A DNA stretch of 64,000 nucleotides from positions 2,496,001-2,560,000 of the forward strand of contig CP147780.1 in the NCBI GenBank assembly GCA_037310415.1. The letters run 5' to 3'. The stretch comes from Candidatus Atabeyarchaeum deiterrae. GTDB lineage: Archaea; Asgardarchaeota; Atabeyarchaeia; Atabeyarchaeales; Atabeyarchaeaceae. The position numbers and the translations under genes are program-made. This document shows positions 2,438 through 63,010 of this stretch, piece by piece. Position 1 is the first letter of the stretch. Each line of letters begins with the position of its first letter. The notes beneath the pieces were generated by a model. The model saw only the letters and a list, made by a program, of their open reading frames with translations, ran no database searches and was not told the origin of the DNA.

Positions 2438-3497
2438 TCTTCTTCACCTTCTCAAAAGGAATGTACAGCTCCGTTAATCCACGAAGATAATAACCCTTGT
2501 TTAATCTTTCAGGTTTCAACAGCCTATCTCCAAAAACAGACTGTAACAGTATATCAGGCTCGTTGAAGCCTGCCAAGGCTCTTAGGTATGTTGTTCCAGA
2601 GTGCCTAGGGTTTATTTCAAAAACGTAGAAAACGTCGCCTACTAGACGACCTTGAACATTCAAGCTCCACTTGCTTCCTAATATTCGGGCGATTCTCTCT
2701 GATTGCTCCTGCACGAGGCTGAAATTATCTATGATACCCTGACTAACCCCTGTGGACAGAACTCTTTCACCATATCTTATCATGTAAGATAGTCTATTAT
2801 GCAAAAGCCTCTTCAGAGCTATAGAACCAATGATATCTCCATGTGGAGTTGACAACACTCCAACCGTATACTCGCCTTCTTGTTCACCAATATATTCTTG
2901 CATTAGAGGACTGATGCTCCTTCTCATCAGATATTTCACAAAGAATTTGGCTTCTTCCTCGTCTTCAGCAAGAAATGCAAACCTCGAACCCCCGCTTGAA
3001 GTGGAGGGTTTAACGACAGACGGATAGACACCAAATTCTGTTACATCCTCTTCTCTGGAGATGATTTCAGTCTTCGGCACAGGAATGCCGTTCTCCTGCA
3101 GGTATTTGGTTTGTTTCGCCTTGTCACTGCATATGCGAATAACCTTGGGATCATTAATCATAAGCATGATTCCTGTTTCATCGAATGTCTTCTTATTATC
3201 GGCCAAAACCATGAGCTCTGCTTCTGAACCCGGCGCCAAAGCGCTGACCCTCTCCTTCTTGCACAGAGACAACATTGTCGACAAATAAGATGAGTTGTCT
3301 GCCCTGGGAACCATGAAGGTCCTTTCAAATTCTTCCATGTATAGCCCCATGCTTAGGGGTGATGCATCAACGCCAAGGAGCCGATATCTATTGGCAAGCC
3401 TCAACGCCTTGAATATCTCTAATCCTACTCCTCCTCCACTTACCCCTGTTATGAGAACCGTTTTCTGCGTGTCTCTGAGGGGAATCCGTATGGTCAT
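2415..3497 (-). CDS. ATP-grasp protein (CarB-like, glycan-modification type)
   Basis: CSDKAK, VVKPSTSSGGS, MQEYI, FEINPR motifs. Confidence 0.85.
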   Translation of the reverse strand: MTIRIPLRDTQKTVLITGVSGGGVGLEIFKALRLANRYRLLGVDASPLSMGLYMEEFERTFMVPRADNSSYLSTMLSLCKKERVSALAPGSEAELMVLADNKKTFDETGIMLMINDPKVIRICSDKAKQTKYLQENGIPVPKTEIISREEDVTEFGVYPSVVKPSTSSGGSRFAFLAEDEEEAKFFVKYLMRRSISPLMQEYIGEQEGEYTVGVLSTPHGDIIGSIALKRLLHNRLSYMIRYGERVLSTGVSQGIIDNFSLVQEQSERIARILGSKWSLNVQGRLVGDVFYVFEINPRHSGTTYLRALAGFNEPDILLQSVFGDRLLKPERLNKGYYLRGLTELYIPFEKVKKSGGMAEG

Positions 3498-58026: not shown

Positions 58027-59463
58027 TCAGGTGATATCTAAACCGAGTTTTCCTGGGTTCATTATATTGTTCGGATCTAATGCCTTCTTCAATTTCACGA
58101 GGACTTCGTACGAGGAACCGAGTTCAGTTTTCAGGAATTTCCCTTTTAGCAGTCCTATGCTGTGGTGGTGACTCATTGTTCCTCCTGTGTCTAATGCGGC
58201 TTTCATTCCTTCTTCCCAGCATTTCTTGTAGATCTCTTCAGCTCGAATGTCATCAGACTCAGTTAAGACGAATATCATGTATATGGATCCGCCTTCAGTG
58301 TAGAAGTGTGAGAAGTGAGCCATGGCTTGAACCCGACCGCTTTTTTCGACGGCTTTCTTGACGTTCTGGTACAAATCCTCAAGCTTGTCATATGTGGCTC
58401 CGACATCAATTGTGTCGGCCAGCATGTGCATTCTTGCGTAGACGGGGTTCGGGTAGTACATGTTGTATCTCTTGCCAAACCATTTTTCCGCTTCTTCTGG
58501 TCCTAGGTCATTTCCTCCTTCTTCTTGGCAGATCTGGGTTGCTGCTTTCTCCTCAGCTCTAACAACGTCTTCGTTTCCTTCGAAGGTGAGTATTAGGAAG
58601 CAGTGTTTCCTTGGGATCTTTACCATCCCGAGGACTAGCATTGCATCCGTCTCGTCGTAGAGTCTAATGAGGCAGGGAATCACGTTCTTCCTGTAGAGTT
58701 TTCTCACTGCCTCGAGCCCACTGTGTAAGCTCGGTAAAATGAAACCTCTGAAGCGCCTCTCTTCAGGAAGCGGCATTATCCTGAACGTCAGCTCCGTTAT
58801 GATCCCCAACGTTCCTTCGGAACCTATGAAAATCTGGTTCAGGTTTGGACCAGTTGATGACTTTGGAGCTTTCCTTGTTCTGATGACTTCCCCCGTGGGT
58901 AGCACAGCTTCTAAACAGACAACCATGTCTTCTACTCTGCCGTATTTCGATGAGAATGTTCCAGCTGAGCGGCAGGCAGCAAATCCGCCTACCGATGAGC
59001 AGTACATGGAGGCTGGTTGATGAGGAAAGGTATAACCTCGCTTGTTGAGTGCATTCTCCAAGTCTTGACCAATGACTCCTGCTTGCACAGTCACCGTTGC
59101 AGACTTCTCATCTATCTCAAGTATCTTATCGAGTTTCTTTAGGTCAACAATCACGCCACCGTGAATGGGAATGGTTCCACCAGTTACTCCCGCACCGCCT
59201 CCATAAGGAATTACTGGTATCGTTTTTTCATTGGCTACTTTGACTATCTCTGCAACTTGCAACGTGTTTTCGGGCCAAACAATCACGTCGGGGAAAGGTT
59301 TGATGATACCTCTCTTGAACTCCATCAGTCTAAGAGACCAAGTATCTTTGCTATACGAGATTTTATCGAACAGAGCATCAGATACATTCTCTTCTCCAAC
59401 GATGTCTGTCAACGCTTGTTTGACATTCCCAACTTCTTCCTGTGGAATCCTACTGCTACTCAA
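58027..59463 (-). CDS. FAD-linked oxidase (VAO/PCMH), alkyl-DHAP synthase/GlcD-like
   Basis: PYGGGAGVTGG, SSVGGFAACRSAG..SSKYG, GSEGTLGIIT, HFSHFY..GGSIY, GTMSHHHSIG, DPNNIMNPGK. Confidence 0.88.
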   Translation of the reverse strand: MSSSRIPQEEVGNVKQALTDIVGEENVSDALFDKISYSKDTWSLRLMEFKRGIIKPFPDVIVWPENTLQVAEIVKVANEKTIPVIPYGGGAGVTGGTIPIHGGVIVDLKKLDKILEIDEKSATVTVQAGVIGQDLENALNKRGYTFPHQPASMYCSSVGGFAACRSAGTFSSKYGRVEDMVVCLEAVLPTGEVIRTRKAPKSSTGPNLNQIFIGSEGTLGIITELTFRIMPLPEERRFRGFILPSLHSGLEAVRKLYRKNVIPCLIRLYDETDAMLVLGMVKIPRKHCFLILTFEGNEDVVRAEEKAATQICQEEGGNDLGPEEAEKWFGKRYNMYYPNPVYARMHMLADTIDVGATYDKLEDLYQNVKKAVEKSGRVQAMAHFSHFYTEGGSIYMIFVLTESDDIRAEEIYKKCWEEGMKAALDTGGTMSHHHSIGLLKGKFLKTELGSSYEVLVKLKKALDPNNIMNPGKLGLDIT

Positions 59464-60089
59464 TTTTCATCCTTCCTCAAGATACACATAGATTTGCATC
59501 TTGCGAAAACCTTGATTACAGATACCAGTCGAAGTTACGAAGTTGTACGACATGCAAGATTACATATTATACTTCGTACTCGGCTCATTTTTCTTAGAAC
59601 TCCATGCCATTGTCTCATACAGCTTTTTCGCTGCCTTAAAAGCTTTGTAGCGATCTTTCAGTAAGAAACTTGCTTCTAACGATCTAAGTCGTCGTTCCTA
59701 TCTTTTTCTCCAAGAAGTATAGTGTGCGTTTGAACATGCAACTCCCCAACGATATCATTTTTGTCAATAAAAACAAACATCACTTTTCTTTATGTACTTC
59801 CCCTTGGTCGCGTTGCTACTGATCATAATTGAGCCGATACCATCTATGGGCAAGCGCATTATCGAGAACTTGACCAGCCTGCTAGATTCCGAATCCTAGT
59901 TATTAGTCGCTTGATTCGAGTCGGCCTCTCGGCAGAGATAATGCTCTGAGATAGAAAGACCTGCGCCATTACATGCCATTCGCAAGCCAAAGCCTTCTCT
60001 CTGCCTCGACATAAATCCGAGGATAGTGTGTGCATATCAAATCCTAAGACACGTGCAACCTTCCCCACGCCAAACCACTTTCCCGTTTA

Positions 60090-61055
60090 CTACATTTTCG
60101 CCTGCTCATCACCGCTCTTTCTCAGCTCAGACTCAAGCCTTCTAAATTCCTCCACCGGGATCAGATGCATGTAGTACTTGGACTTGGGGCTGCCACGAAT
60201 GAGAATGTGCTTAATGTGGCCGCTCCTACACCATCTTATCACAGTTGAAAGCGAGATAAGACCATGCAACCTCTGAGCAACTTCAAAAGGCGAGTAGAAT
60301 CTCAACTTCAACTCTGAAAGCGCACTGCTCAACTTCTCAACCTTCAACAGCCACCGTTGCACCTTCCACGAGTACTCGGTTATTCCCCTGCTCAACAAAG
60401 CTTCCCTCCCACGTTTCAAGATAGAGACAACTCTACCATTACTCTCAGAACCTGCATACCCCACCGAGACACCGTTAGGAGTCAAGCCGTCGACATACGC
60501 TTCAAGGAAATCAATTAGAAACGGGAACAATGTTTGAGCGAAACCCCAATGGGAAACCACCGCACCAAAGACACTATCCCTGTAATCCATCCTTACACTA
60601 GCATGCCCATCTCCGTCAATGAGACCAGCAATGAAAGGAACACCACACCTTATACCAAATAACTTGTTCTCCACCAGAAAACTCTCGACTTCTGCAATAC
60701 CCTTCCCTCTAAGAGCTTGCTTATCGGGAAGAAATCTACAGAGGTCCTTCGAGTTTACAGCCACTGTCACCATCTTCTTCTTCGAATGCTTCCACTTGAA
60801 TGGATTCAAACCAACACGCTTTAACAATTTAACCACCCTACATGCCAACTCCTCCTCCTTGCCCTCAGTGAGAAGAAAGCTAACGGTATACGATGTACTA
60901 CTCCTCCTCGCATAAGTGTAGGACTGTCCATCGGCAAGAAATAACCCGCGAAGGTAGCTCCATTCCTCAACGGAGAGCGCATGAACTTGAAGCACACGCA
61001 GCCCACTGGGGCATGAGGAACCAGATCCCCCGGAACAACTATTATTATTGCACAA
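60090..61055 (-). mobile_element. Free-standing double-LAGLIDADG homing-endonuclease-like gene with C-terminal excisionase-type HTH
   Basis: YLRGLFLADGQ and FIAGLIDGDGH motifs; FYSPFEVAQRL...STVIRWCRSGHIK HTH; base composition differs from the flanks; exact start uncertain. Confidence 0.75.
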
Positions 61056-61059
61056 TTTT

Positions 61060-61250
61060 GGAAATCAACTCGAACGCCAGAGAGAGGCGATTTCCCAGGA
61101 TACTGTGAGACGGCCGAAGCATTCGCCCGACTCCGAGCCCACAGGGCGAGGGGAAAAGAACAAAGTAGACGTAGGTGGAACGTCCTCCAAACGTACGCCA
61201 CTTGTCCTTCTAGGACGAAGGCAGGGGAGCAGAGCCACTTTCTCCAAGCG
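61060..61250 (-). ncRNA. Candidate structured RNA/leader upstream of the LAGLIDADG gene
   Basis: Four adjacent stems: 61060-61095, 61123-61149, 61168-61199, 61201-61220; G-U pairs favour the minus strand. Confidence 0.45.
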
Positions 61251-61726
61251 ACAACACAGCAATCAGTATGAGGAGGAGCTATAAGAACCCCTAAAACGCA
61301 AACCAAAACAAAATCTGCACCAAAAACGCCAAGAAGAATCAAGATAAAACGAAAATACTATGCGAGCACCGTACGACGCCGTAAAACGAACCACTGTAAA
61401 ATGTGGAAAAGCCCAGCATGAACTTCAAATACTATGCAAAAAGCAGAGCACTTTCATCAACAGAAAAAGCCCGATAGAGCACGATTTCACGGATTCGAGC
61501 AAGGAAACCACCCAGCCCAACCAAAAAGACATGATCAACTGGAGAAATAAGAAATCTTGCCGAACTCCGAGTCAGAGATATTTCCTTTTCCAACTATGCC
61601 CATTGGAGCTTGTTAAATAGTCTCAAGTTCTTCGACTGGAATTCCACTTTCGCTCAATTCTAGGCGCTCCTTTAGAATAGACTCTGATATGTTTCGCCAA
61701 CGGTCTCAGGTTTTGAGGCTGTAAGC

Positions 61727-63010
61727 TCAGACGATCTTTTTGGCCAGTAGAACAGTCAGATCTTCGACTTTGGTCATTAGAGATGAATTTGAGACTTCTT
61801 CGCTAAGTCGTATTACACATGTGGGGCAGGGGGCCACAATTCGCTGCGGGTTCTTTCCCTGTTGGAGGATTTCTTTCAATCTTGCACTTGTGATCTTTGA
61901 TGCGACATTTGGTTTGTATGTGCTAAGAAGCCCTCCTGCGCCACAGCATTGCTGGCGGATGTTTCGAGTTGTCACCTCAACTCCGGGTAGTGTTTTCGCG
62001 ACTTCAATGATGTAATCTTGAATTCGCCTGCTTAGATGTCTGGTCAAGTGACATGCGGGGTGAATAGCAACTCTTTCGATAGTCTCCTTCTTCTTTCCCT
62101 GTTTTGCCTTCGCTAGCTTCATGACTTTGTCCAAGCCAACGTCCTCAACCAAATACTCCGTGAGATGTTTCACGCGTATCCCCGAATTCGATTCTAACTT
62201 CGTAAACGAATTTTGAAGCGTATTTGCACATCCAGCGCACGTGGCTACAACTGTCTTCGCTCCGACTTGCTTGACTCTCTCAAATGTTGAGGCTGCCAGC
62301 TTGCTGGCTAGCTCGACATCCCCTATTAGGGTTGCCGGGAGACCGCAGCATGCTTCATTCTTCATTAGTGTGTAGTCTGTTCCAAGTTTCTCTAGGGTAA
62401 GTTTTCCTGACTCTCTGATTTCAAGTGATCTGTGAGTTGATATGCAACCCGCAAAGTAAACGACATCTGCTGACTCCTTATAGATGTCCCGCTTGTACGG
62501 TAGACCGAGGTCCTTCACTGCTGATTCCGCCAGATCAATTCGAAGCTGTTCATCTTCGGGAACCAAACTCGTCCCGTATCGGGATAGGTTCTTATGCATC
62601 ACTTTATGGCTCTCGGGGATAATTTCTGGCCTCAATTTGAATATCTTTGCTCTAATTGCACTCACGATTTCTGGAACCGGTACTTTCTCAGGGCATATTT
62701 CTTCGCACGCTCCGCATTCACTACAACTGTAAACCAGGTCCTTAACGTTCCAGAAATCTGGATTCACACGCGAGAGAGTTGTTGCCATACTTCTCGGACC
62801 AAGAAAGACGTCGAATGATGTTGCTTCCAAGACAGGACAAGACGGAAGACATACGCCACAGTTCAAGCATTTGCCGAGCTCCGCAATCAACTTGTCCTCT
62901 CCTGGCTCAGCCTGAAGCAAGTTCAGTGACTTCACTTTTTCCTTTATGAAGTCATATCCTGCAATACTGCTACTTGAAGTCGTTTTGCCTTCTGCGGTCA
63001 TTTCTATCAT
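61727..63010 (-). CDS. glpC: Anaerobic glycerol-3-phosphate dehydrogenase subunit C-like Fe-S/CCG protein
   Basis: CLNCGVCLPSCP, CSECGACEEICP, two CCG domains; directly downstream of glpB. Confidence 0.75.
   Translation of the reverse strand: MIEMTAEGKTTSSSSIAGYDFIKEKVKSLNLLQAEPGEDKLIAELGKCLNCGVCLPSCPVLEATSFDVFLGPRSMATTLSRVNPDFWNVKDLVYSCSECGACEEICPEKVPVPEIVSAIRAKIFKLRPEIIPESHKVMHKNLSRYGTSLVPEDEQLRIDLAESAVKDLGLPYKRDIYKESADVVYFAGCISTHRSLEIRESGKLTLEKLGTDYTLMKNEACCGLPATLIGDVELASKLAASTFERVKQVGAKTVVATCAGCANTLQNSFTKLESNSGIRVKHLTEYLVEDVGLDKVMKLAKAKQGKKKETIERVAIHPACHLTRHLSRRIQDYIIEVAKTLPGVEVTTRNIRQQCCGAGGLLSTYKPNVASKITSARLKEILQQGKNPQRIVAPCPTCVIRLSEEVSNSSLMTKVEDLTVLLAKKIV

Follow-up and report, generated by a model that had tools for sequence, protein, structure and literature searches.

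In the window analysed here (64,000 nucleotides, G000:C1:2496001-2560000 of the 2.76-Mb single-contig genome G000), a gene for a LAGLIDADG-HTH protein is preceded by a conserved block of about 190 nt, which recurs directly upstream of related genes and is a non-coding RNA element absent from Rfam. We put at roughly 60% the probability that this block is a cis-acting 5' leader of mobile, free-standing LAGLIDADG-HTH genes that keeps translation of the nuclease low by occlusion of its Shine-Dalgarno (SD) sequence; both its transcription as a leader and the translational repression are what we infer. A first-pass annotation had flagged a structured RNA candidate directly 5' of the gene and had offered a nuclease-associated RNA, a ribozyme, or a regulatory leader as its interpretation. 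All the complementary segments that it listed are present in the sequence where it had placed them, and the observation and its interpretation are each upheld in part. The leader and its surroundings comprise the following features.

61050-61240, minus strand: conserved leader RNA block, from the 5' untranslated region (UTR) through the start codon (covariance-model matches)
61213-61222, minus strand: 5' strand of helix P1, sense GCCUUCGUCC (RNAalifold consensus)
61119-61128, minus strand: partner strand of helix P1, sense GGGCGAAUGC
61154-61211, minus strand: P2, a long hairpin of 24 bp (paired cells and covariation)
61060-61095, minus strand: predicted SD-sequestering hairpin of 10 bp beside the start codon (alignment of 17 copies)
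61084-61093, minus strand: 5' arm of the SD hairpin, sense AAAUCGCCUC, which mimics the 3' end of 16S rRNA
61064-61071, minus strand: SD sequence in the 3' arm of the hairpin, sense GAGUUGAU (family consensus GAGGUGAU)
61279-61291, minus strand: predicted TATA-type archaeal promoter, sense GGGGTTCTTATAG (motif conservation)
60090-61055, minus strand: LAGLIDADG-HTH ORF of 321 aa (Pfam, motifs, and PDB profile matches)
61053-61055, minus strand: UUG start codon of the LAGLIDADG-HTH ORF
59464-61546, minus strand: insertion of about 2.1 kb relative to an empty site (comparison with Atabeyarchaeia-1, G001)
61547-61657, minus strand: decayed remnant of the first 37 codons of an FAD-oxidase (glcD-like) gene, with an in-frame stop (tblastn)

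Copies of the leader and the genes behind them

Two covariance models were built, R1 from six copies and R2 from 17 copies, and the window block at 61050-61240 matched them with 175.3 and 152.8 bits, respectively. With these models, the ~190-nt block was found in 17 distinct full copies, and a further copy survives as a decayed remnant; the 17 copies were drawn from the window's genome (G000), Atabeyarchaeia-1 (G001), a related genome (G002), a further NCBI assembly, and several metagenome assemblies (JGI, ENA, and Logan). In every full copy, the 3' boundary is the start codon of a LAGLIDADG-HTH ORF, and R1 and R2 searches of genomes and metagenomes found no copy without the gene. As a statement of genomic association, the earlier term "nuclease-associated" is thus correct. 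About half of the paralogues have no leader, and the leader-bearing genes are dispersed across the protein tree. Clustered at 50% identity, the members of the protein family in public data (E <= 1e-30) fall into about 90 groups, and the family has expanded, with no fewer than 13 copies in a single genome. In a search of 151 genomes of the phylum, the model matched only three genomes, which belong to the window's own family, and it had no match in the 148 genomes from 26 other families.

Metagenome and MAG contigs often stop inside or beside the leader (L015/L035, L017, L029, L073, L099, and L100), and those of P0076 and P0006 end within or just after it and provide no usable upstream DNA. Because contigs break at the leader, as repeats make assemblies do, the copy numbers given above are probably underestimates. 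Among viral contigs, 24 loci with the SD-hairpin pattern were considered and none of them was a true leader (at most 24 bits with R2).

The decayed remnant (G000:C1:40027-40136; L024:1501-1610, minus strand) precedes a frameshifted, decayed LAGLIDADG gene. P1 and the SD hairpin are retained in it, whereas 5 nt stand in place of the 83 model positions that make up P2, P3, and the variable loop. A second leader-bearing locus of the same genome, L002 (G000:C1:1080210-1081703), carries a duplicate of the promoter together with the first ~35 nt of the leader, 1.25 kb upstream of the full copy (L002:190-275 and L002:1440-1683), and an ORF of 225 aa with a signal-peptide-like N-terminus lies between the partial and the full leader copy. 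This resembles the outcome of an insertion into the leader at the 5' strand of P1.

The window ORF matches the Pfam family LAGLIDADG_3 (E = 4.1e-08; 33.8 bits against a cut-off of 22.5) and, more weakly, HTH_17 (E = 2.3e-04). Its two LAGLIDADG motifs read YLRGLFLADG and PFIAGLIDGDG, residues D42 and D149 are invariant in six paralogues, and the family profile matches the PDB entries of I-MsoI and of an I-DmoI/I-CreI chimera. With two motifs, each carrying a predicted catalytic acidic residue, the adjacent protein has the features of a LAGLIDADG homing endonuclease. In all copies, a UUG or AUG in frame with the LAGLIDADG domain stands at the same position after the hairpin. The public record for the window gene (P0001) has 252 aa and begins at an internal ATG; since the conserved UUG gives 321 aa, public gene calls probably shorten the members of this family.

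Conservation and secondary structure of the RNA

A block of ~220 nt (61237 down to 61016 in the sense direction) shares 77% identity with the block in front of a LAGLIDADG paralogue elsewhere in this genome and 68-81% with those upstream of the G002 paralogues, while the proteins behind these blocks share 34-43% identity. The block boundaries are sharp, and the outer flanks are unrelated between copies. Over the family, pairs of leaders have a median identity of 78% and pairs of proteins one of 37% (amino acid), most protein pairs being 28-48% identical, and leader identity correlates weakly with protein identity (rho = 0.26). The domain of P1 to P3, the ~150 nt upstream of the SD hairpin, is nearly invariant in sequence, and conservation in both stems and loops exceeds what base pairing needs. 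A coding N-terminal extension or a leader peptide was ruled out: indels break the frame, and eight of the 17 copies have stops in all three frames (three are open in the frame of the ORF). The Rfam scan that had been proposed for the region matched no family, either at the gathering score in the window or at E <= 5 in 59300-61800.

Four elements, P1, P2, P3, and the 3' hairpin, emerged from RNAalifold and the model alignment. P1 pairs GCCU..GCCC with GGGC..AGGC and closes a three-way junction with P2 and P3, the latter being a short CCC/GGG helix around a variable loop that is expanded by 25-35 nt in some copies. Over the 17 sequences, 94.1% of cells are paired, and controls in which the partner columns were slid reached at most 51%. 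P2 carries the covariation: 95.8% of its cells are paired, four of its pairs are altered on both sides, and pair 48:73, as an example, takes the forms UG (11 copies), AU (four), CG (one), and UA (one). The covariation score of 0.107 lies above all 500 shuffles and all controls with slid partner columns; it is the comparison among copies that upholds the candidate. In P1, 88% of cells are paired and no compensatory changes occur. P1, P3, and a possible outer helix P0 are tentative, since they vary on one side only or break. P0 (GGCGCC/GGCGCC) is predicted by RNAfold in many copies and was not adopted, its cells being paired in 81% of cases with no compensatory change. A pseudoknot (CUGUGGG/CUCACAG), judged by eye in the poorly aligned variable region, was likewise set aside; it is possible in the window copy and L072 and is missing in L002 and L033.

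The stems of the first-pass annotation map onto this model unevenly. Of its stems, GGAAATC/GATTTCC (61060-61095) is the conserved 10-bp 3' hairpin with 95.8% of cells paired, and GACGTA/TACGCC enclosing TGGA/TCCA (61168-61199) is the apex of the 24-bp P2 with its four covarying pairs. By contrast, TCGCCC/GGGCGA (61123-61149) is specific to the window copy, and the family model pairs its GGGC with GUCC/GCCC further 5' to form P1. GTCCT/AGGAC (61204-61216) is also confined to the window copy and is incompatible with P1 and P2. Nor is a C-UUCG-G tetraloop conserved: only three of 17 copies contain CUUCGG (the window copy, L066, and L070), in the window copy through a small insertion beside the 3' strand of P1, and in L066 and L070 within the 3' strand and internal loop of P1.

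Folding energies differed between copies. Thirteen of the 17 copies fold with z below -2.5, the lowest value being -8.65, and the weak folders are the window copy (-0.84), L070 (-0.99), and the G001 copy (+2.9). In the window, the sense strand of 61056-61300 folds at -76.5 kcal/mol, compared with -74.0 +/- 4.6 for dinucleotide shuffles (z = -0.55; antisense z = -1.27), and the exact leader 61050-61240 folds at z = -0.84. The window copy is among the structurally weakest of its family, and when it is taken by itself, the folding energy that had been suggested as a yardstick speaks against the candidate, with z of about -0.6 to -0.8. Folding of the window and G001 copies is weak or worse than that of shuffles, yet both ORFs are intact. 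Their little or no excess folding stability is what a block without function, similar merely through recent spread of the copies, would show. We regard such an origin as extremely improbable, because the ORFs have diverged to ~37% identity and the outer flanks are unrelated, while the block has stayed ~78% identical with sharp boundaries.

Antisense strands fold with z-scores as low as those of the sense strands, so the sense strand cannot be assigned by folding energy. The argument made earlier from G-U pairs holds weakly in the alignment, where 45 G-U cells stand against 14 A-C cells, and does not carry over to stability, the antisense z-scores being equally low. We assigned the sense strand from these cell counts together with the direction of the promoter and the logic of the ribosome-binding site, which fits that strand only. 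That both strands fold equally well would also be expected of a DNA-level element, either a promoter-operator or a site of recombination or homology for movement or cargo swap, in which RNA structure is incidental. The scatter of leader-bearing genes over the protein tree is compatible with modular exchange, and the duplication at L002 implies a DNA rearrangement that broke within the leader. Nevertheless, compensatory changes in P2 preserve pairing, G-U cells outnumber A-C cells by 45 to 14, and the pairing of SD with anti-SD at a fixed spacing to the start codon makes sense for RNA only. Thus, we judge a DNA-level role to be unlikely.

The 3' hairpin and the promoter

The consensus of the 3' hairpin is AAAUCACCUC, a loop of ~12 nt, and GAGGUGAUUU, which form a stem of 10 bp with 95.8% of cells paired across the 17 copies. 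The start codon, mostly UUG and AUG in two copies, follows 4-9 nt after it. Because the 16S rRNA of the window's genome ends in GGAUCACCUCCU, the 3' arm is identified as an 8-nt SD sequence, and the 5' arm as a copy of the anti-SD. In this genome, long ORFs show a 4-5-fold upstream enrichment of SD-like motifs: in front of 1072 such ORFs, GGTGA was found 59 times and GAGGT 77 times, compared with 14 times each at a control position. The ATCACC...GGTGAT hairpin is present in leader-bearing paralogues only. In the window copy, one substitution in each arm leaves one G-U pair and one C-U mismatch. We looked in the copies for a conserved alternative partner of the anti-SD arm, through which repression might be lifted, and did not find one.

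The TTATA element noticed earlier upstream of the candidate proved to be part of a conserved motif, an exact or near variant of sense GGGGTTCTTATAG (61279-61291) being kept in most copies. In most of 16 inspected copies, GCATTTTGGGGGTTCTTATAG or a near variant lies 38-50 nt upstream of the block, and a conserved CACTTGTTCTTGATTTG follows downstream of GCATTTTGGGGGTTCTTATAG, roughly where the start of transcription would be expected. From the usual geometry of archaeal promoters, transcription would start ~23 nt downstream of the TATA element, near 61255-61262, and the leader, ~190 nt as a conserved block, would then be ~215 nt long. The only RNA contig that could be placed here covers 59300-59396, within the neighbouring gene. 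An internal promoter was sought by eye in the aligned copies, and no TATA-like box was seen 20-30 nt upstream of the hairpin loop. The option of a regulatory leader, one of those offered by the first-pass annotation, fits these data: the RNA spans the distance from promoter to start codon, always lies beside the ORF, and ends in a hairpin that buries the SD.

On this basis, we propose that a TATA-type promoter drives an mRNA whose 5' UTR would fold into two parts. The first would be the three-way junction, in which P1 closes onto the long P2 and the short P3 around the variable loop. The second would be the 10-bp hairpin, in which the 8-nt SD GAGGUGAU is paired with AUCACCUC, a copy of the 3' end of 16S rRNA, and is followed 4-9 nt later by a weak start codon, mostly UUG. 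Occlusion of a strong SD ahead of a weak start would hold a potentially genome-damaging nuclease at a very low level, in cis.

The SD hairpin alone leaves the near-invariance of ~150 further nucleotides unaccounted for. Conservation of stems and loops beyond the needs of pairing, as well as a GGCUCGG direct repeat whose two occurrences are ~105 nt apart, would be explained if P1 to P3 were an autoregulatory platform, as RNA or as DNA, to which the LAGLIDADG-HTH protein or a host factor binds to repress its own expression. The HTH_17 domain of the protein is in line with this idea, LAGLIDADG proteins can bind RNA as maturases, and I-TevI is an example of a homing endonuclease that acts as an autorepressor. 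However, the leader is nearly constant although the proteins are 28-48% identical, so that a shared specific recognition would call for a conserved protein surface. We therefore consider autoregulation rather unlikely as the main role of the leader, and it could operate alongside SD sequestration. That P1 to P3 serve as a dedicated RNA partner of the LAGLIDADG-HTH protein, either as a ribonucleoprotein cofactor for homing or integration or as an autoregulatory aptamer, seems quite improbable.

The surrounding insertion and known systems

In G001, the genes flanking the element are only ~97 bp apart, compared with ~2.3 kb in the window, which places the leader within an insertion of ~2.1 kb (59464-61546). 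The insertion consists of a T-rich (sense) 5' tract at 61290-61546, the leader, the ORF, and a 3' region of 626 nt, and the leader begins ~300 nt inside it. Two copies exist of the first 37 codons of the glcD-like gene, a decayed one upstream of the element (61547-61657) and the functional one downstream of it (59353-59463). The remnant is 54% identical to the glcD-like gene over 37 aa (E = 1e-08, tblastn), and a three-way alignment with the empty site of G001 was made. A third candidate remnant of the glcD 5' end at 59734-59756 had an E value of 1.2 and was treated as a chance match. At L066, the 5' part of a LUD-domain gene is duplicated in the same manner over 104 codons with 72% identity (L066:494-955 and 2771-3232). 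These arrangements suggest a mode of insertion in which the 5' end of the target gene is replaced, without use of an intron or intein. A self-cleaving ribozyme, the option raised earlier, a group I intron, and an archaeal BHB intron found no support, since Rfam gave no match even at E <= 5 and a duplicated 5' gene fragment is found in place of exons.

Duplicated 5' parts of host genes were also seen at L028, L038, L039, L040, L055, and L059, in elements with and without the leader. Such flanking direct duplications span 19-154 codons with 51-77% amino-acid identity, and in them the upstream copy is the truncated remnant and the downstream copy is joined to the intact gene. The T-rich tract at 61290-61546 has several oligo-T runs on the sense strand and is 68% similar to a far-upstream block of the L002 locus; it may stop read-through from the upstream glpC-like gene.

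A structured RNA strictly tied to a nuclease gene within a mobile insertion recalls the HEARO and omega RNAs of IscB and TnpB and the bridge RNA of IS110, which likewise lies 5' of its recombinase gene. All of these are conserved structured non-coding RNAs beside a nuclease or recombinase gene of a mobile element, and the leader might accordingly be a LAGLIDADG counterpart acting in trans as a guide, scaffold, or mobility cofactor. The leader differs from them in having no variable guide segment and no complementarity to target or flank. In the two elements compared, the leader can form Watson-Crick runs of at most 6-8 nt with the insertion junctions; shuffles yield ~7 on average and up to 9-11, and guide-like pairing with the junctions was dismissed as being at chance level. 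Moreover, the leader lies ~300 nt inside the element, away from its boundary, is nearly identical in elements inserted into different genes, and has no Rfam match; the nuclease belongs to a protein-guided family, as LAGLIDADG enzymes read DNA through protein contacts. Thus, a partner RNA like HEARO or omega RNA, which had been mentioned as a possible parallel, is in our view very improbable.

The reading as a cis-acting leader that occludes the SD has its closest parallel in T-even phages, where hairpins sequestering the ribosome-binding site were described for I-TevI, I-TevII, I-TevIII, segB, and mobE (PMC2988022). Both systems enclose in a stable hairpin a consensus SD that precedes the start codon by a few nucleotides, presumably to limit the nuclease. 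In the present case, however, the host is an Asgard archaeon and not a phage, the enzyme is of the LAGLIDADG-HTH type, and the 5' arm of the hairpin is a literal copy of the 16S rRNA 3' end. Furthermore, no internal late-type promoter that would free the ribosome-binding site was found in the leader copies, and the hairpin accounts for just the final fifth of a leader whose whole ~190 nt are conserved. Cis-regulatory leaders of bacteria and archaea, such as ribosomal-protein leaders and riboswitches, resemble it in that a long, conserved, structured 5' UTR ends in a helix occluding the ribosome-binding site. Unlike these, the leader described here occurs only with a single mobile gene family, within a single archaeal family, and no alternative (ON) conformation was identified.

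To our knowledge, little is known of cis-regulatory RNAs in archaea, and almost nothing in Asgard archaea. The leader represents a structured RNA family that is new and has no Rfam entry; it is tied to an expanded family of mobile nucleases in Atabeyarchaeia, and its model can serve as an annotation marker for LAGLIDADG-HTH elements and for their UUG starts, which public gene calls miss. Through the domain that is conserved far beyond the protein, the question of whether LAGLIDADG elements employ RNA partners can be addressed concretely; if P1 to P3 were such a partner, it would be the first described RNA component of a free-standing LAGLIDADG mobile element, and that in an Asgard archaeon. 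The SD hairpin points to a restraint on selfish nucleases, in the closest prokaryotic relatives of eukaryotes, like that on phage homing endonucleases: occlusion of the ribosome-binding site, with an occluding arm that in Atabeyarchaeia mimics the 3' end of 16S rRNA.
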